From IMG/VR virus record IMGVR_UViG_3300012979_000040, positions 7,757 through 71,756 of that record: 64,000 bases of DNA. One strand, 5' to 3'. The notes under the pieces are model-generated. The model was not told the DNA's origin and searched no databases. It saw only the letters and a program-made list of their open reading frames with translations. The position numbers and the translations under genes were made by a program. This DNA is from a virus (Duplodnaviria; Caudoviricetes). This document shows, one piece after another, positions 1,747 to 64,000 of this stretch (positions within the stretch are counted from its first letter, which is position 1; every line of letters starts with the position of its first letter).

Positions 1747-3627
1747 ATGAGTAAGAAATATAGTTTAACTAAAGTTGCTGAGGTTTTCTTAAATGATAAT
1801 AGAAGAAAGTCTTGGTCATTATTTGTGAGAGGACAGATAGCACAGCGTGTAGTTGTGTTGGCTGCTCTTGATAATGGATGTCGTACTTATTATGATTATT
1901 ATAATGGATTAACTATTTCATTAGGTAAGACATTCTATAGAGATATTTTTGGATTAGATGAAGAGGTAGACCCTCTTGATCTTAAGACATATGTGTATTC
2001 ACATCTTGCTAAGATTTATATTGGTGTATTCTATCATGAGTTTTTTCACTTAAGATATACTGATATGGATTATGAAAAAGATCTTTTAAGAAAGCTTGAT
2101 AGTAGGGTTATAGAATTAGTACATACTATCTTTAATATCTTAGAAGATGTTACTATAGAAAACTCTGGAGTTCAGGATTATCCTAGCTCTAGACGTTTCA
2201 TAGACGAACTATCTAAGTCACACTTTCAAGAAAGGGCAATAGATGCTGCGTCTAATCTTATCACTAATCACCCAGATACTGTTGATGCCTTAATAAGTTT
2301 CTTGTTATTGTATGCTAGAGGCTATGATATGTCTAAGCTACCACAATATAAGTTCTTTGAAGATAACAAAGAGCTTATTAAGTGGGGTATAGCTCAATGT
2401 CTAAGCGAGAATTTTCCTCGTCTAAGACATAGAAAGCAAATAGCACTTGCATTACAATTACTTAAACTTATTAATGGCGAAGAGTTTGATAAGGATAAAG
2501 TATCTGAAGGCGATATAAATACAAGAGTATCTGGAGTACCAAGATCTGGTACTGGTGATATGTCTACAGTAATTAAAGGTATCACACAAACTGATGGAGG
2601 TGTATATAACTCAACAGGTAATAAACCTATTGAAGCTAATACTTATGACCCATCAGCAACTGCTAATATGGATAATGTGGAAGGAAAAGCAGAACCTAAA
2701 CAAGTCAAGGCATCTCGCGGTGATAATGATATGATGAATATAGATGCATCAGCCATGAGTTCTGATGTAACTCAGCAATGTATTGAGACAATAGCTAATG
2801 ATGATCCTGTTACACATTATGCACATTCAGTTGAAAGATTGGATGCTTATGTTGACACATCTGGCTATGCTCCATCTTATCGTGATGTTAAGAATAAGTT
2901 TAGTAAACTTATTAACAGTGTTACTGGAACTATTCGTAAGATGAAAGCACATAATATAGCATCTTATAGAAGGAATCAATCTCGTGGTATTATTGATATC
3001 AAAGCTGTTATAAATAATAAACCAACTAATAAGAGTTTCATGAGAGTATTGAATCCTGGTAGAGAACCTGACCCAGTGTTCTGTGTAGTTGTAGATAACT
3101 CTGGTTCAATGTCTGGTAGAAAAGCCACACTTGCAGGTGAAGCTTGTATAGCATTAAGTGAATCTTTAAATAGTCTTGGTATAAGTTTTGGTGTATTTGC
3201 TTTTACCGAAGGTAGAAGTTGTGTAACTATAACTTTAAAAGATTATAAAGATATCTATGATAAGGTTAAATATAATTTAACTTTATTTACCAATAATATA
3301 CATTGTTCAGAATGTTGTACATATATGGGTAACATTGATGAAGTTAACATAAGATATCTTAGAGATCAGTTAATACATCAACCACATTCAGATAAGATAA
3401 TGATTGTTATAAGTGATGGTGCTACTTGTGGTGACTGGAAGGAACTTAAGAGAGTAGCAGATGGTATGGAAGCTAGAGGTATCAGAGTTCTCGGCATTGG
3501 TATCTATGATAGAAATGTTGAGAAGATATACAAGAACCATATCATCTTGAGAGACCAAAAGGATTTGGAATCTCTACCAGCATTCTTAAATCAGTATCTT
3601 ATCAAGATGTATAATGGAGGTAAATAA
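1747..3627 (+). CDS. CobT-like protein: N-terminal HEXXH metallopeptidase-like domain plus C-terminal VWA domain
   Basis: FYHEFFHLRYT followed by NILEDVTIE; MIDAS motif VVDNSGSMSG, later VISDG. Confidence 0.85.
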   Translation: MSKKYSLTKVAEVFLNDNRRKSWSLFVRGQIAQRVVVLAALDNGCRTYYDYYNGLTISLGKTFYRDIFGLDEEVDPLDLKTYVYSHLAKIYIGVFYHEFFHLRYTDMDYEKDLLRKLDSRVIELVHTIFNILEDVTIENSGVQDYPSSRRFIDELSKSHFQERAIDAASNLITNHPDTVDALISFLLLYARGYDMSKLPQYKFFEDNKELIKWGIAQCLSENFPRLRHRKQIALALQLLKLINGEEFDKDKVSEGDINTRVSGVPRSGTGDMSTVIKGITQTDGGVYNSTGNKPIEANTYDPSATANMDNVEGKAEPKQVKASRGDNDMMNIDASAMSSDVTQQCIETIANDDPVTHYAHSVERLDAYVDTSGYAPSYRDVKNKFSKLINSVTGTIRKMKAHNIASYRRNQSRGIIDIKAVINNKPTNKSFMRVLNPGREPDPVFCVVVDNSGSMSGRKATLAGEACIALSESLNSLGISFGVFAFTEGRSCVTITLKDYKDIYDKVKYNLTLFTNNIHCSECCTYMGNIDEVNIRYLRDQLIHQPHSDKIMIVISDGATCGDWKELKRVADGMEARGIRVLGIGIYDRNVEKIYKNHIILRDQKDLESLPAFLNQYLIKMYNGGK

Positions 3628-10457: not shown

Positions 10458-12008
10458 TTATTCTTTATCCCCATCTCCATCTCCGTTCCCTTTACCAGTA
10501 TCAGTCTTAGGAGTTCCAGTATAAGTTCTATTAACAGCAGTCCAATCACCATCAGGAACTTTAGTGGAAGTACCAACCCAGTATCCAGGAATATAATCAG
10601 ACTTCTTATTAGCAGACCACACATATATTTGTCCATCATCTGTTTTAAGATATGTAGATCCATTATATGTTTTAATAGCTCCACCTGTTACACCTTGGTA
10701 GTTACCATTCTTATCTCGAATCATAGAAGGATAAGTCTTACCATTATATATTAGCTCACCATTATTCTTAAGGTTCTCACTGTATATAGAATTCTTGTTA
10801 AAGTTGATAACAGAGTTTGCTTCTGCCCAAGCAGCATTCGCAGAATCCTCAGCAGCATCTGCAGCTCTCTGTTGTTCAGTTAACATATCCTTTTGATATT
10901 GTTCTTGAACTTTATTCATGTATACAGTTTCTTCATACTCATATGTTGCAAGAGTCTTAACACCGGGGTACTCTACAGTTTTACCAGTTCTAGGATCTGT
11001 ATAAGATTTTTCAAATCCAAGGGAATCAAAGTAAGCATAGACAGCACCTCTTATATTCTCTGCTCTATCCTTTTGTTCTTGAGTAGCATTCGGATCATTA
11101 GCGATCTTATCTGCTAATTCCATTTGGATCATCATCTCACCAGCTTCAGGTGAAATATAGAATCCAGTACGATCAGCTTTTTGTAAAGCTAGGTTCTCTG
11201 CATCTTGATACATTTCAAGAGCAAGCTTATCTCTCTCAGCTTCGGCATACATTCTAGCTACACTTAATTGTGAATTCAAACCATACTCTTGTAGTTCAAA
11301 CTTGTTAAACATGTTAGCTTTAGTTTGAGCTTGCAAGAATTTTGTACGAGCTGCTTCACTTTCAATGTGACCTCCGCTCCATCCCATCTTATCTGCTGTT
11401 TGGTTAGCAGAGTAAGTTGCTGCAAGATACTCTTCCATAGCTTGAGCACCAGCAGCTCTGATCTCTTGCATTGATTTACTGTAGTCAGCTAGAACTTGAG
11501 CACGCTCTTGTTCATACACAGCTTGGCTACGTTGTGATGCAAGCTTGTTCCAAGAATAATCTTCAGTGTCTGTAGCTTTGTATTGGTTATCCATATTCAT
11601 TTTTGAATCCCAAGAAGCTGATGTAGTTGTTACACCTCTTACAGTATTCTGAGTTTCTATAGCTGAAGCTGCACTTTTGTCATCTCGTGGAGCTGTGTCG
11701 TAATTTGTTGTATTTCCTAGGTTATTTAGTATTCCAGAATTTGCATCGACATTCGGATTAGATGGGTTATTGCCCACTCGATGCAACAAATTTTCGGCTA
11801 TATTTGATGCATGATCCTGCTCTCCAACAACATTTGTAGGTGTGGCAGTTGGCATCTCAGATTTACCAGGGATGCTTGGTCTTGATGGTCCTTGGATCTC
11901 AACTTTAACACGATCTTGAAGAGGTGCTTCTTTTTCTACAGGAGCACTCTGCATATCTTGCACACTATTTAAAACTTCGTTCATTATTTTTATCTCCTTT
12001 CTTTCCAT
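10458..12008 (-). CDS. putative internal virion/ejection protein A (516 aa)
   Basis: Ala/Gln/Asn-rich helical protein; central block is paralogous to 11965-14214; function inferred. Confidence 0.6.
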   Translation of the reverse strand: MERKEIKIMNEVLNSVQDMQSAPVEKEAPLQDRVKVEIQGPSRPSIPGKSEMPTATPTNVVGEQDHASNIAENLLHRVGNNPSNPNVDANSGILNNLGNTTNYDTAPRDDKSAASAIETQNTVRGVTTTSASWDSKMNMDNQYKATDTEDYSWNKLASQRSQAVYEQERAQVLADYSKSMQEIRAAGAQAMEEYLAATYSANQTADKMGWSGGHIESEAARTKFLQAQTKANMFNKFELQEYGLNSQLSVARMYAEAERDKLALEMYQDAENLALQKADRTGFYISPEAGEMMIQMELADKIANDPNATQEQKDRAENIRGAVYAYFDSLGFEKSYTDPRTGKTVEYPGVKTLATYEYEETVYMNKVQEQYQKDMLTEQQRAADAAEDSANAAWAEANSVINFNKNSIYSENLKNNGELIYNGKTYPSMIRDKNGNYQGVTGGAIKTYNGSTYLKTDDGQIYVWSANKKSDYIPGYWVGTSTKVPDGDWTAVNRTYTGTPKTDTGKGNGDGDGDKE

Positions 12009-21290: not shown

Positions 21291-22211
21291 TTATGAACTT
21301 TTTTTAATTTTATTTATTAGCATTTGTCTATCCTGATCATCAGGTAGATAAAAATCTAAGTTACATAATTCTTGGTAAGCACAGTACTCACAAAGTTTAC
21401 CTCTTACTCTGTTATCATGATTAAGTTTTATCTTCTCATATGTTTGAGCTATGTCTTCTAGATTAGATGCTAATATATTTTGATCTAGTAAATGACATTT
21501 TGTTCTATTAAATAGTGGGTGCCCTCTCTTCTCAAGATAATCAAGGACTCCGTAATATTCAGGTTCATTCTCTAACCCTAGTTCACAAAGTTTATTGTAG
21601 TAGTCTTCCTTCAATACAAGACCAAGTCTCTTCTTATCTGCTGATGGTTTACCATTTGCATTCAAAGGTACTGGTTGTATTTTAGCTAGTCTTACTTCAT
21701 CTATCTCATAGATATCTACATTCATGTTAAGGTTTTCTTGTACAACAGAACAGTATGTTAATAACTGTGTGTTGAACTTAACTTGATTTGTAGTATAGCT
21801 AAGAGCTGACTGAGTGGTTTTAGTATCTCTGATAGTAACTAATCCATCATTACTAACTATCCTGTCTATGATGGCTGTGAACTTGTCACCATCTTCCCAC
21901 TCTTCTTCTATTCTTAATTCACTTGCAATGATTTCTTCATCTGGTTCATAGTAATCTATGTATCTCTCTACTACTTCACGCATCATACCAGGTTCGGTAG
22001 ATAATGTACCAGCAGCAACTTTAGTTTCATAGTCACTTAAGAACGGTTCATAAGATTCTCCTTTAGAGTAAGCATCTATACACTTATGAAAAATGTCACC
22101 AAGAGTTAGGAATTCATTACCTTCAGTGTAAATTTTTTCCTCGTACATATATCTATGTTTCTTGGGACATTGATTGTATGTGCTTAGTCTGGAGAAACTG
22201 AAGTTTCCCAT
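21291..22211 (-). CDS. PD-(D/E)XK exonuclease (Cas4/RecB-like, Cys cluster)
   Basis: SFSRLSTYNQCP, IDRIV...IRDTKT, Q-x-x-x-Y, LCEYCAYQELC. Confidence 0.9.
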   Translation of the reverse strand: MGNFSFSRLSTYNQCPKKHRYMYEEKIYTEGNEFLTLGDIFHKCIDAYSKGESYEPFLSDYETKVAAGTLSTEPGMMREVVERYIDYYEPDEEIIASELRIEEEWEDGDKFTAIIDRIVSNDGLVTIRDTKTTQSALSYTTNQVKFNTQLLTYCSVVQENLNMNVDIYEIDEVRLAKIQPVPLNANGKPSADKKRLGLVLKEDYYNKLCELGLENEPEYYGVLDYLEKRGHPLFNRTKCHLLDQNILASNLEDIAQTYEKIKLNHDNRVRGKLCEYCAYQELCNLDFYLPDDQDRQMLINKIKKSS

Positions 22212-22212
22212 A

Positions 22213-23955
22213 CTAATCCTCCTTGCAATAATCGTCTAAGTCTACACCCTTACCCCAAGGACCACATTCAATATCAGCTACAATAGGTACATCCCATTTA
22301 ACTGTTAACATTGAATCTATTCTCTTAGGGTGTTGCATTATAGATTGTATCTTTAGTACGTTCTTGCGAAAATTTTCATTCTTTCTAACTAACATTATAA
22401 TACTATCGTGTACAGTTGCACATATTTTTACTTCATCTTTACTAAATGTATCGTTGATTTCACATAGTGCACACAATGCTATGTCACTTGCAGCACTCTG
22501 TACTGGGAAGTTAATTACTCTTCGCATATATTTTTGTCTATCATCAGGAAAATATAATGCTTTGTAGTTAACTTTATATCTTCTACCCATTATGCTAGTG
22601 ACTTCACCAGTATTTATTAATTCATTCTGTGTGTCACGATAGTATTTGTGTAGCTCATGGTATTCTTCAAAGAACTTTTGTCTTATATGTGTAGCCTCTT
22701 CAAGGGAAAATGTTTGCCCGTATGATAGTGCAGCATATGCTACGAATGAATTGGGCTGCATACCATATAAGTATCCAAAGTTTATTGCTTTGGCTGCAGT
22801 TCTTTGTGGTTTAGTTACATCTTTTGGATCTATACCTGCTACTTTAGCAGCCATATTAGTGTGTAAATCTACACCATTATTATATAATTCTTTAATCTTA
22901 CTAACCTTAGCTACAACACCAGCTGTTCTTAGTTCAGCTTGTGAGTAGTCTAGTTGAACAAGTTCCCAGTCAGGATCTATTGATCTGAATAAAGTTTTTA
23001 AATCTTTATTTCTTGGTACTTGTTGTAAGTTAGGATTATTACAACTGGTTCTTCCTGTAACAGTTGTGGTTAGATTAAAGTTAGCGTGTATGATTCCATC
23101 TCGTTGACGCTCTGACCAATCAACAAGAAAGGTTAATGCCTTGTCGACCTCTCGTCTTTTCAGAATCATATCAACAATAGGGTGCTTACCTCTTAGTTTA
23201 CTAAGGGCACTTACACCTGTACTTGGTTGACCACTGTCAGTATATTCCGGTATATCTAAACCAAGTTCTTTATATAATAGGTCTTGTAATTGTTTTGGAG
23301 AATTCCAATTTATATTTGCATACTTGATTAGTTGATCGTCACACTCTTTTAGTTTCTCCATGTAGATCTCTTTAGTTTCTTCTAACAGTTCTACATCAAT
23401 TGGTAAACCATGTAACTCTACATCTCTGTATACGTTACTTGTATCTACAACTAATCGGTATGTCTTATAGTCTCTTTGATCAAAATTGTCACGGAAATAT
23501 TTGTACAATTCTCTTGTCCAATATAAATCCAGTTTTAAATATTCCTCGACATCCTTACGAGTCTTGGAAGTTTTCTTATCTATGCCAACATCCCAGTTAG
23601 GTGCTCCGAGTAATCTCATTGCACAGTTCTTAAGTGTTAGCCAACCTTTACGATTTTCGATAAGATCTGATGCGTTTGATGATATATAAGCAAGGATCAT
23701 TGTATCGTGGTCCATCTTAATATCCACATCTAATTGGTATTTCATCATCTTGGTATCGAACTTACCATTATGAAATATATTTATACATCCTTTAGCTTCT
23801 TCTAGTATATCCAGATTATCTTTGTGTCTGTCTAGAATTATATATTCACCAGGGTCGTCATCAGAATCAAATGTTAGTATTCCTATCCAGTTGATGGCGT
23901 CTTCTAATTCAAGTCCGTCTGTCTCAATGTCTATGACATTATACTTCTTCAACAT
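22213..23955 (-). CDS. family A DNA polymerase with 3'-5' exonuclease
   Basis: DIETDGL, HNGKFD, TGRTSCNNPNLQQVP, DYSQAELR, RTAAKAINFGYLYG, TVHDSI. Confidence 0.97.
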   Translation of the reverse strand: MLKKYNVIDIETDGLELEDAINWIGILTFDSDDDPGEYIILDRHKDNLDILEEAKGCINIFHNGKFDTKMMKYQLDVDIKMDHDTMILAYISSNASDLIENRKGWLTLKNCAMRLLGAPNWDVGIDKKTSKTRKDVEEYLKLDLYWTRELYKYFRDNFDQRDYKTYRLVVDTSNVYRDVELHGLPIDVELLEETKEIYMEKLKECDDQLIKYANINWNSPKQLQDLLYKELGLDIPEYTDSGQPSTGVSALSKLRGKHPIVDMILKRREVDKALTFLVDWSERQRDGIIHANFNLTTTVTGRTSCNNPNLQQVPRNKDLKTLFRSIDPDWELVQLDYSQAELRTAGVVAKVSKIKELYNNGVDLHTNMAAKVAGIDPKDVTKPQRTAAKAINFGYLYGMQPNSFVAYAALSYGQTFSLEEATHIRQKFFEEYHELHKYYRDTQNELINTGEVTSIMGRRYKVNYKALYFPDDRQKYMRRVINFPVQSAASDIALCALCEINDTFSKDEVKICATVHDSIIMLVRKNENFRKNVLKIQSIMQHPKRIDSMLTVKWDVPIVADIECGPWGKGVDLDDYCKED

Positions 23956-27763: not shown

Positions 27764-27790
27764 AAAAGAGTGCTGTGCACTCTATTTTTT
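27764..27790. terminator. bidirectional hairpin terminator after the endolysin
   Basis: AAAA-GAGTGC-TGT-GCACTC-TATTTTTT. Confidence 0.75.
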
Positions 27791-28600
27791 AATACTATTA
27801 GGTGCAAACCATGCAGTAACTTTGGAATAATCTCCAACCTTACCTTCATTGTATTGATTCAATGCATAAGGATGGCTTGCATTCTTAGCTATTGCTATAA
27901 CTTTCATCTTAGTATTAACGTATGATCTTGTTGATACTCCTGTTCCTGCAGAGCTAGCTCTTCCTGGACCGTTAACGATAACAGTATCACCTAACTCTAT
28001 AGTAGTACTTGGTTTTGGTTTTAATATTTCATTTACACGAGCTTGAACTTCAGAATAATTATATCCTTCTGCCTCAAGACGCTCCTTACGTTCTGGATAG
28101 TTACCGTACTTTCCATTTATTACATCATGTGCTACTTCGTCAATAGACTTAGTAGGTGTAGGTTTTGGATCATTATTGATTGGTAACTCTTTATCCAAGT
28201 ATGGTGTAGGATCTATCCTAGTATCATTTAATCTCACTTCGAAATGCAAATGTCCCCCATAGCTGGTTCCGGTGTTGCCCATATAGCCAATCACACTTCC
28301 AGCTTTAACTTTATCTCCAACTTTAACAGCTACAGATTTATATGCCATGTGAGCGTATAAAGTTTTGTAACCTGAACCATGATCAATAATAACATAGTTA
28401 CCATAGTTACCACCATCTATAAATCCTGTAATGTCATTACGTGTAGCAATAACTTTTCCATCTGAATGTGCTGTTATATAATCAAGCACATGTGTTTTAT
28501 TTCTATATCCTGTAACATCAACACCACCGTGCCAAGAGCTACCTCTTTTTCCATATGCACTAGTGATGATGTGAGGATAATTCTTAAGGACTCTACTCAT
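27782..28600 (-). CDS. endolysin: M23 peptidase plus Cpl-7 cell-wall-binding domain (start moved to ATG 28600)
   Basis: HGGVD, YAHM, HLHFEVR; SIDEVAHDVINGKYGN...RKERL...YSEVQARVN. Confidence 0.93.
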   Translation of the reverse strand: MSRVLKNYPHIITSAYGKRGSSWHGGVDVTGYRNKTHVLDYITAHSDGKVIATRNDITGFIDGGNYGNYVIIDHGSGYKTLYAHMAYKSVAVKVGDKVKAGSVIGYMGNTGTSYGGHLHFEVRLNDTRIDPTPYLDKELPINNDPKPTPTKSIDEVAHDVINGKYGNYPERKERLEAEGYNYSEVQARVNEILKPKPSTTIELGDTVIVNGPGRASSAGTGVSTRSYVNTKMKVIAIAKNASHPYALNQYNEGKVGDYSKVTAWFAPNSIKK

Positions 28601-28601
28601 A

Positions 28602-28697
28602 TTAGATCTCCTCCATTTCTCCTTCATAGTGTTCAGTATCTTCTGTAGCAACTGGAACACCTTCTTCTGGTATAAATCCTGGTATTAGTTCTTCCAT
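28602..28697 (-). CDS. 31-aa acidic micro-ORF (MEELIPGFIPEEG...)
   Basis: RBS AGGAG; fills the gap before the endolysin. Confidence 0.45.
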   Translation of the reverse strand: MEELIPGFIPEEGVPVATEDTEHYEGEMEEI

Positions 28698-43527: not shown

Positions 43528-45435
43528 CTATTTCACAAATGCCTTGGCATCTTGATAAACATTTTGACTTTCAGTGCCTTGCTTATACTCAGAGTGCTTC
43601 TTTATGTGTTCGTCTAATTTAGCCATAACATATTCGTACATAGCTGGATTAGAAGATTTTAAATTACGAACATAAGAACTCATTCTAAATAAAGAGTGCT
43701 CTAGTATATGCTGTGAGTGGTTATCCCAGTCATTAACTTCAGTGTCGATCTTATCTAGGATACATCTATGTTCATCGCTAATTTGATCATGACTAGCTCT
43801 TTCCATAGGATCTAGTGTATCTTTAAGGAAGCCAGAGTTTAAGGCATCCAAGATCTCTAACTTTGTTACATAAGATAACCCAGTTTGTGGATTGTATACT
43901 CCCAAATTCGCAGCTTGTGTCATACGAAGTTGACGAGCTTGATCTGATTGCATCAGGAATTCCCTGTTAACAATTTCCAGATTCTCTGGGTCTAACTCTC
44001 CTAATTTATATTTTACCATATAACTATCTAGTTTTGCAAGTTGTAGAACTTTTGAAAGGATTTTCTGTCTTTCTTTTTCTACATAACACACTTGTTTAAA
44101 TAGTTCTATTAAACATTCACCAACATTATCTATAGCGTTTGTTAGTTTGTTTTGGTCTGCTTCACCAATCTTATCTGCAACACCATCTGTTCTTACAGAA
44201 CTTTTACTCATACCGTAGGCAGATATTTGTGATAGTCCTGCAGTTACTAACATATCTTCTTCAATAGATTTAAGATAGTTAATAATTTCATTACCAACTT
44301 GAGCTTTCTGTACTGGCTCAGGTCTTTTGGCATTACGTTTAATCATAATGAATTGACCAGGCTTATTAGTTACTCCATCAGGATTTACTAATGAGTCTTT
44401 CCAAACATACATCTGACCAATAGATAAATGGTTAATGTGTTCTAATAATCTATTCTTAACACTATTGTAAGTATCTTGAATAGGAATTATCTGACTATAA
44501 ACTGTAACACTAACTAGGTGATTAGGTACAGTTTGTAGATTCATAGGGATGAAAGGAATAGCCCTTCTATTGTATGAATTATCATATGGTAATTCGCCTT
44601 CATACAATATCTTCTCATTAATGATTACAACAAATTGTCCTTTAGGGTGAAGAGCATCCGGCTTACGATAATACTCATATACATAGGCATATTTGTTTTG
44701 CTCATATTTATCATTATCTGAGAATCTAGATGAATCCAAAAAATATCTTGGGTCGATATCTTCTGCTCTAGCTTCGAATCCCCAGCGTTTACAAATGTAT
44801 TCTAACGAAAACATTCTTCTATGACACAATTCAGAAATGTCTTCCATTGATTCAACTGCAAGAGAATCTACAAGAATCTCATGCATTGGGATTACATCTA
44901 TGAATACACGTCCTTCTCTTATTTTTCTTGTTCCTTGTACTTTAAAATCATCATCCTCAGGTTTAGTAATAGTAATATCTTTCGAAAGAATTTCATCACC
45001 TTTACTCCAATCTATACCAATTTTAAACCATACAAGACCAAATATATCAGCGTGTTGTACAGCCTTTTTATATTTAGCTGTGAAGTTAATATCTTTTCTG
45101 AAAGTATCCAGAAACTTATTCCCTTCCATGGCATTTGTTATAGTTTCTTCTCTATTATCTGTACCCTTAAAACCAATCAATGGTTGGTTCTGAGAAAGAA
45201 TACCATAACGAGTTAAATATATAGGTAACATTCTGTTGAATATTTTTCTTTCTAAATATAGACCATGTACGTTTTTTAAACCTTCAATGGCTAATGTTCG
45301 TTCATTTATTCTTTTATATTGATACCCTTGAATATAACCTTTACTAAGTTCACCAGATAAAACGAAGGGTCTCAATCTTAATTCAGCATCTCTAATGAAT
45401 GACTGAATATGATTTAATAATGGACTATTCTTCAT
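43528..45435 (-). CDS. portal protein (P22/podovirus-like)
   Basis: 635 aa; FIDVIPMHEILVD, Q-x-x-YN-x-x-K, NKPGQFI; located downstream of TerL. Confidence 0.88.
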   Translation of the reverse strand: MKNSPLLNHIQSFIRDAELRLRPFVLSGELSKGYIQGYQYKRINERTLAIEGLKNVHGLYLERKIFNRMLPIYLTRYGILSQNQPLIGFKGTDNREETITNAMEGNKFLDTFRKDINFTAKYKKAVQHADIFGLVWFKIGIDWSKGDEILSKDITITKPEDDDFKVQGTRKIREGRVFIDVIPMHEILVDSLAVESMEDISELCHRRMFSLEYICKRWGFEARAEDIDPRYFLDSSRFSDNDKYEQNKYAYVYEYYRKPDALHPKGQFVVIINEKILYEGELPYDNSYNRRAIPFIPMNLQTVPNHLVSVTVYSQIIPIQDTYNSVKNRLLEHINHLSIGQMYVWKDSLVNPDGVTNKPGQFIMIKRNAKRPEPVQKAQVGNEIINYLKSIEEDMLVTAGLSQISAYGMSKSSVRTDGVADKIGEADQNKLTNAIDNVGECLIELFKQVCYVEKERQKILSKVLQLAKLDSYMVKYKLGELDPENLEIVNREFLMQSDQARQLRMTQAANLGVYNPQTGLSYVTKLEILDALNSGFLKDTLDPMERASHDQISDEHRCILDKIDTEVNDWDNHSQHILEHSLFRMSSYVRNLKSSNPAMYEYVMAKLDEHIKKHSEYKQGTESQNVYQDAKAFVK

Positions 45436-46162: not shown

Positions 46163-46191
46163 ATTATACCATTAAAAGTAATCATCTTCAA
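46163..46191 (-). promoter_or_regulatory. sigma-A promoter for the portal-capsid-tail operon
   Basis: TTGAAG-17-TATAAT with TG extension. Confidence 0.8.
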
Positions 46192-47749
46192 CTGCTACTC
46201 CCCAAGAATCTATCTCTCCACTGTCTAACCTTTCTTCCTCTTCATCTAACTTACGTTGCCATTTAGTACGGGTATCTTCTTCATACTCTTCTAATCCTAT
46301 AGGTGCAATGTCAGATGAATAGAATACTAAGAACAAACCATATGAGTCAATGGCGTGGTCTGCACAACCTTTGTTGATCATACCGATATTGAAATCATCA
46401 TACACAGCATTATCCATTTCTTCTATCAAACTATTAACAGATGTAGATATTCTAAACCTGTGTGTACCATCTATCATCTTAAGTCTAGTAGACGAATGGA
46501 TTTTATCATAACGCATTTGTACTTTACCTTTACCAGATTCAACACCTATAGGGTTTAATCCATAGTAATCAAATACTTCTGATTTCATTTCACCTATTAT
46601 TCTACCAGTATCATCTCTATATCTATCACCACCACGATACATATCATGTGGTAATAAAGTGGCTGTTATATAGTAACCCATTTGTTTAGACTTATCTGCT
46701 ATTGCTCTAACAAAGTCTTCAAATATTAGATCTTGCCCATACATATCATCGAATGTTATAACCCTACCATCTTCAAATACTGCGTGCCATAAGGCTGAGT
46801 GATAAGATGGTTTGTAACCCCAGTCTATAGATATGTATACATCAAAGTTTTGTGGGCCATTGGTTAATTCAAGGAAAGCTTCTCTACCATTTATATACTG
46901 TTCTTCAGGAACATCAAACATCCTACCAGCTACAACATCCCAGTTACCATATAAATCCATTTGCTTTCTTGCTTCATCTTGCATCTCTAACATAGCTGCG
47001 TATGATGCATTTAAGAATGGATTATCTTTATATGATGCTGGTATAAATCTAGTAATAACTTTGATCTTACCTTTAGCTGTGTCCATCCATTCAATGTGGT
47101 CTTTTGTTTCAATAGGAGCATTAGTGTATGGATCATACAATGTAACTGTAGGATCAATAAATCTACGCTTAACCCATTTGTGACCTTTACCTCCAGGGTT
47201 ACAACCAAGTACAACCTTTGTAGGAATTCTTAGTTTCTCGCCTGTATAAGGATTGGTTTGAATTGTAGAACGAACTGTTGATAACAGATAGTTAAATGTT
47301 CTTTCATCTTGTTTAGTAACTTCATCAATAGCTAAGTAGTGAAATTCCCAACCTTGTTGGCTTAATGCTTCACGGTAATCAGCTACACGTTGAAGTGTGA
47401 TGTAACTTCCATTAGGAAAGATTATAGAACGGGAAGGGTACCAAGAGGTACTCTTCTCTCTATATTCATATATTGTTTGCCCACCTGCTTTTTGTGGAAA
47501 CAATGTAGGCAACTTATCTAGGAATGATTGTTTAACGGCATCCAGTTTCTCACGGATGATTATACATTTAGCTCCAGGATAAGTAGTGGCAAACATGAAG
47601 GCGTCAGCTAGAATACCTGCTGACTTACCTCCACCTCTCGAACCACCATAGAGAGTAATACATATATCCTCAAAGGAGCAAGGTGCATTGTGTAATAGCA
47701 CCTGCTTCTCGTGAGGTTGATAGCTTGGTGTGACAACTACCTTAGCCAT
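46172..47749 (-). CDS. terL: terminase large subunit
   Basis: YGGSRGGGKS Walker A, AIDEVT Walker B, GCNPGG motif III, ISIDWG nuclease, DHAIDS. Confidence 0.97.
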   Translation of the reverse strand: MAKVVVTPSYQPHEKQVLLHNAPCSFEDICITLYGGSRGGGKSAGILADAFMFATTYPGAKCIIIREKLDAVKQSFLDKLPTLFPQKAGGQTIYEYREKSTSWYPSRSIIFPNGSYITLQRVADYREALSQQGWEFHYLAIDEVTKQDERTFNYLLSTVRSTIQTNPYTGEKLRIPTKVVLGCNPGGKGHKWVKRRFIDPTVTLYDPYTNAPIETKDHIEWMDTAKGKIKVITRFIPASYKDNPFLNASYAAMLEMQDEARKQMDLYGNWDVVAGRMFDVPEEQYINGREAFLELTNGPQNFDVYISIDWGYKPSYHSALWHAVFEDGRVITFDDMYGQDLIFEDFVRAIADKSKQMGYYITATLLPHDMYRGGDRYRDDTGRIIGEMKSEVFDYYGLNPIGVESGKGKVQMRYDKIHSSTRLKMIDGTHRFRISTSVNSLIEEMDNAVYDDFNIGMINKGCADHAIDSYGLFLVFYSSDIAPIGLEEYEEDTRTKWQRKLDEEEERLDSGEIDSWGVAVEDDYF

Positions 47750-50700
47750 TCAAGATCACTCCTGTCTTTATAGTCTACTCCAGTATCATATGATGTAAGA
47801 TTGTAATCGTTACTCCATATACCCATTTCAGGGGATACGTGTACACTTACTCTGTCAAGATTCCAATCATTATATCTATCAAGCTTTTTGTTATAAGAAT
47901 ATGTTTTAGGATAGTACTTACCAGGATATATATTTGAGTATGGATAGTATGAAGAATAACTACTACCATAATAATTGTTGTTATAAGTCTTCTTGTATTT
48001 AGGTACATATACATCCTTTGTTTCTGTAGGGAATAATTTCTCTAACATTGGGTACATCTCTGATTCATATTCTATAGCTTGTTGTAATTTTAATTGTTCT
48101 GCTGGAGTTAGTGAGTTTATATAAGCTTGTCTATACTCTTTTAAAGTATTTAACTTTCTTATTATAGAGTTGTTATTTAATGCAGCTCTTAGTGTTGCTT
48201 CAGATACATCATTGTCATTGTATTCATGAGTTATATAGTTATATACAACTGTAGAACTTTCACGACCATTGATCATCTTTCTAAGAGTTTGATTAACTCT
48301 ATTAAAGTCATCTACGTCATAAGATCCATATTGAGAAGCGTAATGTCTGTTATAGTACAATTCATCAACACTAGCCATATCGTTTATGTCTAGGTCATAA
48401 TCATAACCTTTAATACCTCTACTAAACGCTTTCATATCTGTTATGAATGCATAGTAGTTAGAAGTATCTTTCTTCCAAGATTTCTGATTACCTAGATCAC
48501 TATTGATACCTTTAGTTAAACCTTTCCATAAAGATGTAAGGAATCCAGTATCTTGATCTGAGTATTTAGAATATTTGTTTTGATCTATAACATTATCTGC
48601 AATACCACTTCCTGTAAAGAATCCAAGGACTTTTCTCATACCGTTCTCAACATTAGTGTATTGGTATTTTTGTTTAGTGCTCATGAATGGATCAGCTATT
48701 TGATAAGGGTCACCACTGTCACCAAACATTTCTTGTCCTGTAACTATTTCAATAGGTAACTTAAGTACTGGGTTTAATCTAGAAAGTACGTTAGCTTTAA
48801 TCCAACCATAACCTTTTTTAGCTAATGTATCATTATACTCATTTGTTAATGGGTTAATATACATTTCTTTAATTTGGTATGCAGGATTTAATGAATCATA
48901 TACAACTGTAGGAGTTCCTCCGATAAGAGTACCAATAGGATCAAGTGTAACACCTTCTTCTATCCACTCTTCTTCAGTCTCTTCATCTACACCGTACATA
49001 TCACATACTGCTGTTATGATTGCATTTGATAATAATGATAATCCAACTACACCTAAGCTAGGCATTACAACTGTGTTATACCATTGTGTTGCATTGTTTT
49101 CAGTTATACCTTCTTGGAATAATCTTCCAACACTCATTGCATATGAACCAAGAGTTCTTGTTAAGTTCATAGGGAATGTTGCGAACATCATTATACCTGA
49201 TGTGTATTTAGATAAATAAGGGAAACCTCCAGGAGAACCAAGCATGTAATCCATGATGTACATAGCTTTATCTCTGTTATCTTTTATACCATCAATAGCA
49301 TTCTTGTTATAGTATTGAGAACCATACCAAGGTCTACCATTATCAAATGATTCTTTAGCTGTTAGATATATAGCGTATCTTCCAAGATGATTCTGTAAGT
49401 CTAACGGCTTAGTCATAAAGTCTGTAATCTTACTTAATATATCTGTACCCATATCTTCTGTAAAGTTGATTGGGTCTTTATTAGTTCCACCCCATAAACT
49501 AGGTTGACCTTCACGTATTAAGTAATCTTTTAAATCTTCAGGTATTGACTTACCTTTTGAACTTAAGGCTTGAGATATATCTTTACCAGCTCTAGCTATA
49601 TTAGGAATTGTATCGTAGTTAGATATAGCTCCCATAGCATAGTCTGAACCAGTATATCTTAAGAATCTACTTAGCATCTTAGCAGGTAATGCCATTTGTA
49701 TTCCTGCTGATGTTGTAGAAATTTTCTTAAATAATTTCATAACTCTTCCAGGAATCTTTCTGGTATATACCTTAGATGAAAGTTGATCTACTAAATCGTT
49801 TCGAGCAAGATAGATTTCTCCACTTAATGCTTTCTCTAGTACATATTGAGCAAACATTGTATCACTCTTACTATTGTAAGATAGTTCAATATTATCTTTC
49901 AAATATGATAGGGATCCGTCATATACTGGAGCAACTGATCCACCTCTTTGAATCTTTTGACCAAACTTATTTACAAGACTGTAACCTTCTTTTTCAAGAC
50001 CTGCTATATATTTAACAAGCTTGTCAGAAGATCTAGAAGAACATTCTATAATTCTTTGTGCAATCATTATCTGAGCCCACATAGCATTGTAAGTTTCTTT
50101 TGCTAATAGTCTAGTTGGTTCATTCACATATTGATCAACATTAGCCATACGATATATCTCAGATAGTGATGATACAACACCGTCTGAAGATGTTTCTGCA
50201 AGTTGTTGTCTTAATGATTCTGCCTTACCTCTTACTTCTCTGTAAGCTTCTAGTATAAGATCAGCACCATTCTTAGAAGTTTTTCTTAATCTGTATATAT
50301 CTAGGTCAGTATACATACTTGTTATCTCTAAGACTTTATCAGTTATTTCTGAATCAAGTGCATTATAAACTTTAAGATCTCCGAATGTTTCTGGTGCATC
50401 TATTATTTCAAATGCTTTGTTAACTATATCAACATTGTTGATTAAAGCTTTACCAGTATATTTACCAGTCAATGCATTGGAAATATTTTCAGCAGCTATA
50501 ACATTACTCATATCTCTAATAAGTTTTTCTGATCCTTCAAAGAAATTAAATATCATGTTTTGTTCAACTATGTTCTTATTACTAGATGGATCATATGCTT
50601 TAGAAATGCTTGATATCTTTTTAAGATTATTAAGTATCATGTTTTCTCTTGCTACTTTATCTTTAGGAACATATGGTGCCATCAGAATGTGGAATGAATC

Positions 50701-53700
50701 AAATGGTTCATTAGATATCTGTGACGCTCTTCCTGCAAGATACATCATATTAGAAATGAATTCATCATAAGCTTTTACTATTTCAGGATGTTTAGTTACG
50801 TAAGAATCATGATCAAGTTTTAATTTGCTGTTCTCAGCTTTCCATTCTTCTTTTGATAATCCCATGTATTTAAGTTTAGCTTCAAAAGTTTTAGGATCTT
50901 TAGAAGCTTCTGTTAACCATCTGAACTTAGCAAATTGTTCAAAGTTTCCAATACCAGCCTTAGTTATCATCTTATTAAGGGCTGTTAACTTTTGACCGTA
51001 TTCTAATTGGATATACTCTGCTTCAGACTTAAAGTTCTTTATACCTATATCAACACCAAGTTGATCAGCGTTGTCTGTAGATATACCACTTCTTGTCCAC
51101 AATCTAGATTCAAACAATTTATCATTAGTAGATAAATCCCATGTGAAGTTTATAAACCCAGAAGACTTATCAGCTGTGTAAGCTCTAACTTTTTTAGTTA
51201 GTTCTTCATAAGCTTCAAACTCTCTTTGTTTAGCTTCTTCAAATTGTTTAGTATCCATTATAGCATTATCAATAGCTTTAGATCTTTTGAATGCTTTTAC
51301 TTCATCATTTGTGAATTCTTGTTTACTAATAGTATCAGTTATATCACGTCTAAGCATGTAACCTTTAGTACCTTTATTTATCTCTCTTCTATAATCTCTA
51401 GGATCAATAATATCATGATGGTGAACTCTTTGATAATTTAATCCACCTTCATCATTTACGAATTGTCCTACAAGCTTATTAACTTCTATACCTTTTATAC
51501 CACGGTATTCAGCAGCTTTTTCTACTGAGTTTTTATTTTTATCCATAGCAAGAGACATTATATAGAATGCTCTAACAGATGGTGAATATCCTGTAGATAA
51601 TCTTTCATTCTCAATAGACTTACCTATTAAGCCTTCAAATGTAGGTTTAGTAGGAGTGTTATCTGTTTCGAATACATCATAATCATCAGAACCTTTTGTG
51701 AATATTTCATCAATCTGAGGTCTTATACCAAAGATATCTTGTTCACCACCAAGGTTTGTTTTAGTATTTCCACCGAAGACATATTCATTTAGTATAGGAT
51801 CATATATTAGTGTACCCATCTTAGTATCTATAGATGTCCAGCCAGTACCTATACTCGCACTATTTGGAATGAATTGCCTGTAACCCATATCACCTTCTTG
51901 AATAGCTTTCAAGATTGCATTTGTATTAGGGTATGCTCCAGTTACACCTCTATAGAATTCTATGAATGGAACATGTAATATAGTGTTCTGTACTAATGTC
52001 CTATCATTTGTACTCTTATTAGCCATATTAAATAGTTTACCGTGAACACTCTCATACTTAGGGTCAAGTATTTGAGCTTCAGATCCACCACTGGCTTTTG
52101 AAGATGTAGATCTAGGGTTACTGTAGAATTCTTCTGAGAAGTTAGAAGGCATTGTTGGATCTAACTTATTAGCTATTTCATTACTAAATAGGAACTTCAT
52201 TACATTTGAACTATTAGCAAGTTTAATCATTCTATCTCTACCTAGAGTTCTCATTAAAGCATATTGTTCTTCAAGTAATTCATAAGAGTTTATCTTCTCT
52301 CTAGAATATCTTAAGTTATTTAAATACTCTTCTCTTGTTTTAAATGGACTGTTATAACTTCCGAATAAACCTTCTAACTCTTTATCAGTTAAAGAGTTTA
52401 ATAAAGCATCTGTTCTTAAGAACATCACATATGATCCTGTATCTCCCCAAGCAACTCTATGATCACCTTTATTAGTGTCTAAGACTTTAGATATCTGTGA
52501 TGTGTCTATGTATAATCTTCCTTCTTTATCACGCTTTAATGCAGCACTTCCGAATCTAGCCATCTGCATGAATGACATTATATTAGACATTGACATCAAT
52601 TCAAACGATCTGATGTGACTAGGATCATTAGGATCTAGTTTAGGTGTGTAATCAATATCGGCACCTATGATATTAGTAGGTACTCCTTTTAACACATAAC
52701 CAGATCTTGGTTTGCCGTCAGGTCCTTTGAATGTTACATACTCAGCATTTCTAAAGTAAGATAACAATTCAATACCTTGAGCATATTTATTCCAGTTCTT
52801 AGTAGCATTATTAGCATCAACTATTAAGTCAATATTAGCAGCTTTAAAGCTATCCCCTTCTTTATCAACATCTGATATTTTTGTTTCTGCAGTATTACCT
52901 TTAAAGAATCCAGCACCTGCAAGTTTCTTACCTACAACTTCAGTTTCTTCAAAATAAATTATTGCATTATCTTTTTTCGATACATCAGATATAACTATGT
53001 TATTGTGAGCTTTAACAACAGACCCATCGTCTCTAAAACCTAGTACTTGGCCTTCTCTAATTACAGCACCTTTACGAACTCTATCAACATGCTTACCATT
53101 AACTTTGTCTTTTATAAATGTTATTCCTTCATAAGGCATAACTTTTGCAGCAAAGCTTCTTATCTTACTATTTCTATTTCCGATATTTGTATTAAGACCT
53201 ACTGTATCTTCATTATTAAATATACCTTTTGTTACAAATACATTAACTCTATTTTGTCTAGGTGAATAGTCGTCATCTACAAGTTCAACCATAGAACCTT
53301 GGATAGCTTCCATAGCCTTAGCAAAGTTGAATGTACCTTCTGATACTTCATCTAATTTGTCTGATGTAGTAACATCTAAAGGTTTATTTAAGTTTGTACT
53401 AACCTTACTTCTTACTAATTCTGATTGTAACATATCTGATAAAGGAGTGTCATTAGCTGCATATCCAGATATCTCTTTCTTTCTATGTGTAAGTTGTGCA
53501 AGTTTTTCATCTAGTAATTTAGTTCTCTCCAATTGATCAGAGAATGTAGTGTCTTTTGAAACAAGATCAAGAGCCCTATCTAAAGCAGCTTTTGTTTCAT
53601 CGTTAAGATTATTGTAGTTTCTACTAAATAACTCTAAATCATGTAATGCTTGTGATAAAACTGTTTCTGCAAAGTCAGCATAAGCTTTAGATTTATTTAC

Positions 53701-56700
53701 ATCATTAGTTATTTTTGAAATGAACTCATCTGTATTAGTTGCCCATTTATAGAAGTTAACTAAATAATCTTGCTTGAATGCTTGAATGCTTGCATCGTTA
53801 TATTTATTTGAGTTAACCATCCTAGATAGGTTAGCAGTTAAGTCATTAACAAATGTTACTAAAGTCTCTTGTGAATTAACATTATCCTTAATCATGTTAC
53901 TCATACTCTTAGTTAAATACATCGAAGGTGTATACAAGTCTTGTAAAGGATCTTCTAATGTTTTATTAGGAGCCATTAAGTATGATATAACCTTTTGATA
54001 AGTACCAACCGTAGGGTCAAGTATATTTGATTTAGTTAACTCTTGTCTAGCAAACATTGCTTTTCTAGCTTTATATGTATAAGAGTTTTTATATAATGCA
54101 GGGTTGTTAACAAATCTAATAGGATGTGACATATTAGTAAATGTTTCTTTTACACTTAAGTCTTTAACAGCTTTATTGATAAATTTAATTTTTTCTTCCT
54201 CGGTAGTATGTCCAAGAGTTAATGCTATACCTTGTTCAACATATAATTTTTCTAACTCTAGTGCCATAAGATCTTCTATATCTTTGATCTCTTTAGCAAC
54301 ACTATCAGGAATTTCAACTTCATTTTGGACTCTACTTAAGATATTGTCAAGGTTTTTACTTAATTCTGTTATCTCTTTTGTAGTACCAAGTCTTACAACT
54401 TCTTCTGATTCTACAGAAAAGTTTTTATTGATTTTATTTAATCTTGCTTGAGCTCTAGTATATAAGTTTGTAGGTTCCCACATAATCTTATATATAATAG
54501 GAGCCATTTCAAGCATTCCATTATTAACTATGTTACCATCCGCATCTTTATGAGCATCTGGTGATAATACAGTAGTCATTGTATGGTCACCATCGAAGTC
54601 ACGGTTACGTAAGATCTCTTGAGTTTCAGGAGTAAATCTTATTGTAACTTCATCACCCTCAACCAATCTAACTCTTAATGGTAGTATAGGGTTCATGTTA
54701 TCGGCAGGATATGTGATAGACATTAAATAGTAATTACCATCACTAGCTCTCATTGTTTCAACATCATACACATTAAAGAATTTCTTTAGTGCTGCTCTAG
54801 TGATAACGATGTCACCTGTAGATACATTCTTAAGTTTACCTTTAGCTTTATCTGTAGTCATATCTACTTCTATGTATTCATTAGTAAATGGTGAAACTGA
54901 GTCCATCATTGAATATAATCCAACAAATGATCCTGTACCCTTATTTTTACCTAGAACATTTTTAATTTCTGATGCTAATGATTCAACACCACCATCATCA
55001 TAGTATATATTGCGTTCTTCGTATTCAGATAATATAGATTCGTCATAACCTTCTTCTATAGTTATAGCATTGTTAATAAACATATTTCTAAATACTTGCA
55101 TAGCAGCTTCAGAGAATTGTTGTTTATTATTAATACACATTTCTTGTACTTCCATTAAGTATGGTATATAAGGTCTAGTCCTTACAAATTCTGTAGCAAC
55201 ATTTTCAGGTATACCATTTATCTTACCTTTTCTAAAACCTACAGTTCCTGTAGATAATTGATTGATAAGATTACCTCTATAAGTTTTAACTACATCCTCA
55301 TCTAACATTGATGAGTTTATATTTAGAATTTTATAAGTTTCAGTATCCTTATTAGCTAATTTCTCTAGGAATGTACTTAGTGATTTATCATCAGATTGTT
55401 TAATGTAAGTGTAATATAAATTATCAAATGCTTTTATAAAATCTCCTTGTGTATTATAAGATTCTATAGCTATTGCATCTATAATATTATATTTCATATT
55501 ACCATCAACAATCATCTTTACATAGCTATTATTGTTATAACCTAATTGATCCATAAGTCTTAACCATACACTACCTCTAGTATTATTCTTTAGATAGTTC
55601 ATAGCTCTTTGTACTTTCTTTATATTATCTAATGTTGGATTATAACTTTTAAAACTCTTTCTAGCTTCAGATAAATTTTTAGTATACATAGCTTTATCTA
55701 CTGCATTATATATCTCTGCTATTTGAGCTTCCGTTAAATCCTCAGGTAATAATTTATGAATGTCAATAATAAGTTTATTTCTATCGTCAACCATATTCTT
55801 TGTATTACTAAAATGATCTATTAATAATTCCATCATGTCTTCAGTGTCTTGGTCAGCTGAGTGAGCTTCTTTATAATGTTCAACACTGAAAGTTCTTTTG
55901 TATTCCTCTTCTTGACCTATAGATCTTGTAGTATCACCTTCACGTTTTAATACAGTTTCGATAGCATCAAGTCTCATAGCTTTAGGATCTAGATAATCTT
56001 TAAGTATTTCAAACTCGAAGTTATCGCCATTATAAGCTATGTACATATCAACATCTTCTGTGTCTTTTAGTATTCTAGCTGCTTCCTCTTTAGTTATGAA
56101 TGTTCCAGCTTGTGTGTTATGTTCTTTATAATCCTCAAGAGCTTTTCTATAAGATTCATTCTTTAAGTAGAACGCACCTTTCTTATCTACATGTTCAGCA
56201 ATCCACTTCTCTTCTGAAGATGCATACTTAGTATTATCTTTAAAAGATAATTGATGATCAATGAAGTATGTTTTAATTTCTTCTGTTAGTTTACCATTAA
56301 CTACTTTGTAAGTTTTTACAGCCATTTGGAAAATGTTAGACATATCTTTAATGTTAGGATCTAAGTTACCACTTTCTAAATCCACTGCTTTTACATGTTT
56401 AATAGTAGAACCAGTACCATTGAAGAATTTATTTAACTCTTCTACAGCTATAGTGCTTTCCCCATTTAATGTAGTAACTTTATAAGTTTCATTAAATCCT
56501 TGAGTCCAGTTTCTAAATCTAGCCATTAGAGGTACTTTCTTATTGAATAAGTAATCAAGCACTTCTGGGTTTTCAAAGTGGTTATACAAATATTTCTTAA
56601 TTGCTGTTACATATTCATCAGTAGTTGATTTGCTGTGTAAACCATATAGTGTTCTATAGTGGTCTAAATCTTTTTGAGATATATTTACCCCACTTTTAAA

Positions 56701-63728: not shown

Positions 63729-63896
63729 TATTTGTTTATTTGCGACTATCTTGTCTAGTTGTGTTTGAGTTACCCATTGACGCTTGCCTTGCTTGTTAGT
63801 TAATAAGTAGCGGGGCTCTTTTCTAGTAAGGTTCGGTTTGATCTCTTTGTAGACCTTACCTTCGTGGATATAGTAGTCCTTGCCGAATGGTATCAT
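63726..63896 (-). CDS. small hypothetical protein (56 aa, MIPFGKDYYIHEGKVYKEIKP...; not in the ORF track)
   Basis: RBS AGGAGGTGA; TGgTATAAT upstream (~63928-36). Confidence 0.7.
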   Translation of the reverse strand: MIPFGKDYYIHEGKVYKEIKPNLTRKEPRYLLTNKQGKRQWVTQTQLDKIVANKQI

Positions 63897-63959
63897 TTGT
63901 TATCACCTCCTGGTTCTCTTAGTACCATTATACCATATTGGTTCTTAAAGTACCACACT

Positions 63960-64000
63960 TTTGGTAACATTTGTTAGCAATTTGGTAACACTTGTTAGCA
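63960..64000. repeat. 21-bp tandem direct repeat, each unit an imperfect palindrome; truncated by the window end
   Basis: TTTGGTAACATTTGTTAGCAA / TTTGGTAACACTTGTTAGCA. Confidence 0.75.

Follow-up and report, generated by a model that had tools for sequence, protein, structure and literature searches.

A predicted DEDDh exonuclease domain within a giant polymerase-like protein of an uncultured phage family

We examined a stretch of 64,000 nucleotides of DNA from a tailed phage (IMG/VR record IMGVR_UViG_3300012979_000040, positions 7,757 to 71,756), referred to here as the window. It constitutes the final 64 kb of a 71,756-bp contig. One open reading frame (ORF), P0001, encodes a protein of 5,317 amino acids (aa), and an earlier note, made from the sequence alone, had placed a DEDDh-type 3'-5' exonuclease in this protein about 400 aa upstream of the active-site loop of an RNA polymerase (RNAP). 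On the basis of sequence profiles and predicted structure, aa ~2421-2634 almost certainly adopt an RNase H-like fold and form a true 3'-5' exonuclease domain of the DEDDh class. The best overall explanation of our results, to which we assign a probability of about 0.72, is that the domain is a real and likely working exonuclease module in an injected giant polymerase protein, acting in cis on a 3' end. The features discussed below are listed with their coordinates in Table 1.

Identity and conservation of the exonuclease domain

The five residues singled out in the earlier note, D2437, E2439, E2559, H2610 and D2615, were all found at those positions by direct indexing of the translation, and all lie in the one ORF. 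D2437 is encoded by nucleotides (nt) 56380-56382 and shares the motif KAVDLESGN with E2439; N2554 and E2559 (nt 56014-56016) are within YIAYNGDNFEFEILKD, and H2610 and D2615 (nt 55846-55848) within KEAHSADQDTEDMM. When the three motifs were searched as a regular expression with DnaQ-like spacing, the real protein gave one match, and 31 of 2,000 residue shuffles (1.6%) matched as well. At this rate the motif is by itself only suggestive, and the case is carried by the profile, fold and conservation tests.

A profile built from eight domains of the family (alignment A3) was searched against 1.84 billion proteins. It retrieved 13 giant relatives, followed by about 42 small proteins with expected values (E values) between 1e-7 and 1e-3; eight of the ten best small proteins pass the cut-off of the PF00929 (RNase_T) family. 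Aligned by hhalign to 18 of the small matches, five of which were checked as PF00929 members, the A3 profile gave a probability of 99.0% and an E value of 8e-18 over 169 columns. This E value is flattered by the choice of the 18 proteins, which were picked as A3 matches, although their Pfam membership is independent of that choice. The alignment pairs D2437/E2439, E2559, D2575, H2610 and D2615 with the invariant D-x-E, D, D, H and D of the 18 PF00929-type proteins. A profile search of the PDB sequences returned almost exclusively 3'-5' exonucleases (the ExoII motif of family B DNA polymerases (PolB) as the best, a TREX1 homologue, RNase T, TREX2 and PolC). Scanned in five pieces against Pfam and PHROGs, the giant protein yielded no significant family.

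The structure of the domain was predicted by AlphaFold2, without templates and from family sequences only. The model has a mean predicted local distance difference test score (pLDDT) of 74 and a predicted template modelling score of 0.74, and its secondary structure elements follow the DnaQ order, beta1-beta2-beta3-alphaA-beta4-alphaB-beta5-alphaC. All of the top Foldseek matches in the PDB are DEDDh enzymes: TREX2 (E = 1.8e-4, probability 1.00), RNase T, TREX1, DinG, PARN, Cas2-DnaQ and QIP. The best VIA alignment is to Rv2179c (4hec; Z 11.6, root mean square deviation (rmsd) 2.7 Å, 148 residues aligned), and the matches down to Z 10.1 are again all DEDDh; oligoribonuclease (Orn), the epsilon subunit, TREX, RNase T, PolC and ExoI score at about Z 10-11. 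These alignments cover model residues ~42-255, which correspond to aa 2421-2634. The viral neighbours of the fold are stand-alone phage DEDDh exonucleases, with E values down to 8e-6. The fold presumed in the earlier note is thus the one predicted, and it matches only DEDDh exonucleases. Since three independent lines agree (the family profile, hhalign and the template-free model), we regard the identity of the domain as solid.

The phage domain has the same fold, D-x-E motif, ExoII acid and H-x4-D motif as the PF00929 DEDDh enzymes (Escherichia coli DnaQ epsilon, RNase T, oligoribonuclease, TREX1/2 and Mycobacterium tuberculosis Rv2179c). It differs from them in its glutamate at ExoII, in a helical insert of ~75 aa between beta3 and alphaA and in being missed by the Pfam model. 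The PF00929 enzymes are proteins of ~200 aa or subunits of DNA polymerases, whereas the phage domain is embedded in a protein of 5,317 aa.

Conservation of the acidic residues and the histidine, which the earlier note had proposed as a check, holds across the family. In alignment A3, whose eight sequences range from 92% down to 13% identity, D2437, E2439, H2610 and D2615 are invariant. The catalytic residues are also invariant in seven homologues at 35-53% overall identity, as is D2575 in the same seven close homologues. Among 25 relatives, the ExoI D-x-E is present in 24, the ExoIII H-x4-D in all, and the ExoII position is acidic in all (Glu in 11, Asp in 14). The stretch from ExoII to ExoIII is 42-46% identical among close homologues, compared to ~34% for the N-terminal half of the protein. 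The ratio of nonsynonymous to synonymous substitutions (dN/dS) of the domain, calculated against a relative that is 92% identical there, is 0.14, a value that still indicates purifying selection.

The earlier note was also correct that Glu replaces the canonical Asp at ExoII; the Glu is confined to the subclade of the window, and the more distant relatives keep Asp. By its sequence the domain is therefore a "DEEDh" variant, in which the strict catalytic Asp is replaced and the acidic chemistry is kept. The coronavirus exonuclease nsp14 ExoN is an active DEEDh enzyme with a catalytic Glu in motif II; Glu and Asp alternate at this position among nidoviruses, and the E191D mutant has near wild-type activity (PMC7654266). 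The ExoII Glu is therefore compatible with activity and need not be a sign of decay. We consider it highly probable that the domain is catalytically active. As a two-metal nuclease, it would hold its metal ions by D2437, E2439, E2559 and D2615, and with H2610 as the general base it would take nucleotides one by one off a free 3'-OH end.

The polymerase core and the genomic setting

The presumed magnesium-binding loop DFDGD begins 416 aa past D2615 and 594 aa past D2437. The placement given in the earlier note thus stands, and it is conserved in all relatives examined. The loop is present in each of the 15 family proteins checked, as DFDGD in 14 and as DLDGD in one (L005), and D-x-DGD is invariant in a family alignment (A5). 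In the members where both elements were located, the loop follows ExoI by 586-631 aa. Judged from the sequences, the exonuclease domain is a fixed module of the giant protein, which keeps its distance to the DxDGD loop through very deep divergence. A second motif, GKKLAGAGFFKG, resembles the two-lysine motif of the RNAP beta-type barrel (GDKxAGRHGNKG). It was recovered by pattern only in P0001-P0004. Its residues G3587, K3588, K3589, K3597 and G3598 are invariant, and it falls in a low-confidence part of the model. The beta'-type loop stands ~550 aa before the beta-type motif, GKKLAGxGxxKG (window 52897-54600, minus strand), which is the reverse of the usual beta-then-beta' order. The modelled barrel (model residues 43-195) aligns to residues 351-490 of the Escherichia coli beta' subunit with VIA Z scores of 6.5-6.8 (e.g. 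7chw_D, rmsd 3.7 Å, 106 residues). Together, the motifs and this weak fold match suggest that the giant protein carries a two-barrel RNA polymerase core.

The stop codon of the giant ORF overlaps the start of the terminase large subunit gene, terL, so that the giant gene is directly upstream of terL. In all ten related contigs the giant gene adjoins the terL and portal genes and the gene order is kept; the SU10_portal Pfam family is found at the position of the portal gene in relatives. The most conserved part of the giant protein is its C-terminal ~700 aa, with 59-77% identity among homologues versus ~34% elsewhere. This part (window 47737-49800), which includes the hydrophobic segment, may be the membrane-inserting or channel portion of an ejection protein. 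By virtue of the adjacency to terL and portal, and of the hydrophobic segment in the conserved C-terminal part, the giant protein is probably a virion component that enters the cell along with the DNA.

Table 1. Features of the giant gene, its exonuclease and polymerase motifs and its surroundings. Positions are those of the window unless stated otherwise.
Feature	Position	Strand	Basis or remark
Giant ORF P0001, 5,317 aa	47737..63690	minus	translation; host protein of the exonuclease domain
Predicted DEDDh (DnaQ/RNase T-like) 3'-5' exonuclease domain, aa ~2421-2634	55789..56430	minus	AlphaFold, Foldseek, VIA, hhalign
ExoI motif KAVDLESGN (D2437, E2439)	56365..56391	minus	aligns to FDLETTG of PF00929 proteins
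ExoII motif YIAYNGDNFEFEILK (N2554, E2559)	55999..56043	minus	Glu in place of canonical Asp; aligned to the PF00929 ExoII Asp
Asp motif MRLDAIET (D2575), strand beta-5, between ExoII and ExoIII	55954..55977	minus	conserved
ExoIII motif KEAHSADQDTEDM (H2610, A2612, D2615), H-x4-D type	55834..55872	minus	defines the DEDDh subclass
DFDGD loop, aa 3031-3035, presumed Mg-binding, beta'-type double-psi beta-barrel	54586..54600	minus	motif and alignment
GKKLAGAGFFKG, aa 3587-3598, resembles the two-lysine motif of the RNAP beta-type barrel	52897..52932	minus	pattern
Hydrophobic segment, aa 4874-4896	49003..49071	minus	Kyte-Doolittle scan; only strongly hydrophobic segment of the giant protein
Terminase large subunit gene (terL)	46172..47749	minus	immediately downstream of and overlapping the giant ORF; relatives carry PF04466/PF03237
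Portal protein gene	43528..45435	minus	phrog_156 portal, E 8e-16
Palindromic 17-mers	63911-63927, 63939-63955; in L013 (record start) 3-19, 23-39, 375-391, 398-414

P0001 belongs to a small set of giants of 4,963-5,334 aa. Further relatives were reached by way of their terminase genes, which fall into more than 130 clusters, many of them on contigs of 70-77 kb. In all eight contigs fetched by this route, a gene of 5,270-6,206 codons lies directly upstream of the terminase gene, and the exonuclease domain was found in it by iterated profile searches. There are at least 13 full-length relatives (4,963 to ~6,200 aa), each upstream of a terminase gene. A tblastn search with aa 2301-3300 against 50,697 phage records gave no match, and a search of cultured phages with the terminase found relatives that are only ~26% identical; thus there is no cultured relative. 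Pattern scans of IMG/VR gave no match, and a pattern scan of JGI metagenomes found one locus, L002. A search for shorter proteins carrying the domain retrieved none, and a stand-alone version was thus not found. The split giant genes of two loci, L011 and L012, were considered as natural boundaries of the domain and rejected, since each break is a single in-frame stop or frameshift inside continuous homology. The breaks are near the exonuclease domain (L011 ~2880-3000 and L012 ~11147-11169), one a stop ~40 codons ahead of it and the other, at an A-rich run, a frameshift ~40 codons beyond it; they could be assembly errors, decay or recoding.

The terminase of locus L003 (10001-11578) is 88% identical to that of the window and its exonuclease domain (1068-2039) 27%; for L001 the corresponding values are 98% and 49%. 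By these comparisons the giant gene appears to diverge far faster than the terminase gene, through either strong diversification or mosaic exchange.

Elsewhere in the window are a 580-aa family-A DNA polymerase (PolA) with its own DNA_pol_A_exo1 domain and, following it, a gene for a PD-(D/E)XK nuclease (both within window 21291-23955, minus strand), so that the phage encodes at least three nuclease domains. A lysin with a Peptidase_M23 domain and a CW_7 repeat (window 27782-28660, minus strand) indicates a Gram-positive host, and the host of this ~72-kb phage is probably Gram-positive. The public sequencing runs that best share words with the phage (shares of 0.26-0.29) are labelled as gut and bovine metagenomes, which is a hint of its habitat.

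At both ends of the record the genes point inward: the left end has ~14.5 kb of small genes on the plus strand, and the right end has the giant gene. A palindromic 17-mer, TGGTTCT-NNN-AGWACCA (7-nt arms and a 3-nt centre), occurs in six copies in the 71.8-kb record, only at its two ends, which suggests that these ends are joined in the actual genome. The copies sit in non-coding DNA between the upstream region of the giant gene and the plus-strand early genes. From their sequence and position, they could be operator sites, or hairpin promoters such as those used by the virion RNAP (vRNAP) of phage N4. Upstream of the giant gene, the record closes with three direct copies of a 20-mer, TTTGGTAACAYTTGTTAGCA (window 63886-63905, 63960-63979 and 63981-64000).

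Possible roles of the domain

A giant protein ejected with the DNA would bring a small number of exonuclease copies into the cell just as infection begins. So few copies at entry make action in cis most likely, on a 3' end that is handled by the same protein. Replicative proofreading is argued against by PolA, which has an exonuclease domain of its own; the exonuclease of the giant protein is not needed for replication fidelity. The substrate that we tentatively prefer, with coronavirus nsp14 and its RNA polymerase as a functional parallel, is the 3' end of the nascent transcript in arrested, backtracked or misincorporated complexes. It is ranked first on account of the conserved linkage to the polymerase and of the general rule that exonucleases fused to a polymerase edit the product of that polymerase. 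By trimming the RNA 3' end, the exonuclease would rescue or edit a single-chain polymerase without a factor of the Gre/TFIIS type. The stronger proposal, that the DEDDh domain is the dedicated editing or rescue nuclease of an injected two-barrel RNAP, is somewhat more doubtful.

The next most likely substrate, though an unlikely one in our estimate, is the 3' end of the entering phage DNA. The exonuclease would then chew back 3' strands for annealing of terminal repeats and circularisation, or would trim or hold the leading end against end-dependent nucleases of the host, and the polymerase would be a mere passenger. The ejected protein would be the sole phage enzyme present when the DNA end arrives, and a few copies per virion would suit such a cis-acting job. 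Among the closest PDB profile matches, DNA exonucleases (the PolB ExoII motif, TREX homologues and PolC) are as frequent as RNases, and the palindromic 17-mers common to both ends of the record mean that the ends are related in sequence. On the other hand, IMG/VR reports no end repeats for the 71.8-kb record, and processing of DNA ends leaves unexplained why the spacing of ~600 aa to the polymerase loop is fixed in very divergent relatives. A variant of this explanation, in which resection exposes a single-stranded template, was prompted by the finding that gp66, the RNAP of the crAss-like phage phi14:2, transcribes single-stranded and not double-stranded DNA (bioRxiv 10.1101/2020.03.07.982082). 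The variant ranks low on strand geometry: starting at a duplex end, a 3'-5' exonuclease degrades the strand from which inward genes are transcribed, and both ends of the record point inward.

Less probable again is an injected enzyme of counter-defence or host takeover, which would degrade host nucleic acids with free 3' ends (small oligonucleotides used as guides or signals, retron or Argonaute DNA, linear dinucleotides, or transcripts) ahead of all phage gene expression. Short oligonucleotides are the substrates of some structural neighbours of the domain, oligoribonuclease/REXO2 and Rv2179c among them, and the arenavirus NP is a reported case of a viral DEDDh enzyme put to use in immune evasion. 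The giant gene changes much faster than the terminase gene, as in L003, and fast change is typical of conflict genes. However, the fast divergence spans the whole N-terminal two thirds of the protein and is not specific to the domain. An enzyme tethered in a handful of copies would also be poor against bulk or diffusible targets, and most known defence signals are cyclic, without a free 3' end. No defence-related family was found for the giant protein in Pfam or PHROGs (PADLOC was not run).

Several points weigh against a working exonuclease module in an injected polymerase. The PF00929 model gave no match for aa 2351-2700 even at E values up to 1 (the gathering cut-off is 24 bits), nor did it match anywhere in the whole 71.8-kb record. 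In L010, the most distant relative, with a giant protein of 6,206 aa, the ExoI Asp aligns to a Ser (GSLSSEF, aa ~385-395 of the partial giant protein, locus nt ~1150-1190) while ExoII and ExoIII are kept; either activity was lost in this lineage or the region is misaligned. The dN/dS of the domain somewhat exceeds the 0.08-0.09 of the flanking regions. In the Klenow exonuclease, conservative Asp/Glu swaps at catalytic positions cut activity by more than 96% (PMC7654266), so the ExoII Glu could lower the rate of the phage enzyme. On the polymerase side, the AlphaFold model of aa 2880-3720 has a pLDDT of 46 overall and of 50-76 around the loop, and a Foldseek search with it gave no match at E values up to 0.001. 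With so poor a model and no Foldseek match, the polymerase assignment is one of motifs and a weak VIA match; the barrel also aligns to the largest subunits of Pol I and Pol IV, again at Z below 8, which is below the level that excludes a merely common arrangement. The active site of two-barrel RNAPs can itself cleave RNA, and in early transcripts, which are short-lived, errors are of little consequence. There is thus no obvious need for a dedicated transcript exonuclease, and transcript-coupled action further assumes that the exonuclease site faces the polymerase.

Some of these points would also fit a relic without catalytic activity, retained only as a spacer with a structural or nucleic-acid-binding role: the Glu at ExoII in the clade of the window, the failure of Pfam to detect the domain, the missing ExoI Asp of L010 and a dN/dS slightly above that of the flanks. 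We consider such a relic very improbable. The five catalytic positions and the auxiliary D2575 are kept down to 13-27% identity of the domain, while most other positions have changed; the ExoII E/D alternation is known from an active enzyme, nsp14; and the dN/dS of the domain remains in the purifying range.

Relation to known systems and significance

The likeness to coronavirus nsp14 ExoN goes further than the Glu of motif II. The two share the D-E-E-D-h set and the E/D alternation in motif II, and nsp14 also serves an RNA-synthesising polymerase and originates from a giant polyprotein (PMC7654266). It differs in its zinc fingers, its need for nsp10, its unrelated RNA-dependent polymerase and its RNA genome, and nsp14 is absent from the sequence and fold matches of the phage domain (PDB profile search, Foldseek and VIA). 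The likeness is thus an analogy of mechanism and not one of membership. The best PDB sequence match, to archaeal PolB enzymes (Tgo, KOD and 9 degrees N), is a near-identical local motif, with PDVLITYNGDNFDFAYLKK at ExoII of PolB and PDxxIAYNGDNFEFxxLK in the phage protein. However, the match extends over only ~32 residues, and PolB is a DEDDy enzyme with Tyr at ExoIII, where the phage domain has His. A Pfam scan found no polymerase B domain beside the phage exonuclease domain. Precedents for such a fusion are Cas2-DEDDh, Staphylococcus aureus DinG and PolC (Z 11.4-10.4 to the phage model), in which DnaQ-like modules trim 3' ends for the enzyme they are fused to, although their partners are an integrase, a helicase and a DNA polymerase, and never an RNA polymerase.

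For the polymerase, the relevant class is that of the virion RNAPs. Both gp66 of phi14:2 and gp96 of the Thermus phage P23-45 consist of a single chain with two barrels and a DxDxD loop (bioRxiv 10.1101/2020.03.07.982082; PMC10770324). These two, the latter fused to the tape measure, and the N4 vRNAP are giant, delivered by the virion and the first polymerase of the phage, a class to which we tentatively liken the present protein; it is 1.5-2.4 times longer than they are. A profile of the whole protein, searched against the PDB sequences, gave no RNAP match and no similarity to the solved gp66 or gp96, and there was no PHROG match, although very distant homology is possible. In the fold search with the polymerase region, P23-45 gp96 and QDE-1 are listed among the matches below significance. 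The word exonuclease is absent from the papers on gp66 and P23-45 gp96 (bioRxiv 10.1101/2020.03.07.982082; PMC10770324). Bacillus phage 0305phi8-36 was considered as a cultured example of an exonuclease-RNAP fusion and rejected, as it has no PF00929 match. Full-text literature searches found no published report of an exonuclease-RNA polymerase fusion of this kind. The enzyme domain is of a known kind, and so is the presumed class of injected polymerase; it is their combination, in a phage family without a cultured member, for which we know of no description.

In every two-barrel RNAP of the cellular type studied to date, wrong or backtracked RNA is removed by the polymerase active site itself, with help from factors of the Gre/TFIIS type, and we know of none with a separate proofreading nuclease. 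If the domain does edit transcripts, the giant protein would be the first DNA-dependent RNAP with a separate proofreading exonuclease domain, and the phage equivalent of coronavirus nsp14. At its small size the domain can be expressed and assayed directly. The family of giant proteins to which it belongs is common in animal-gut metagenomes and has no cultured member. Whether it acts on transcripts, on DNA ends or on nucleic acids of the host, an exonuclease in the phage enzyme that probably reaches the cell first would point to an early event of infection that has gone unrecognised.

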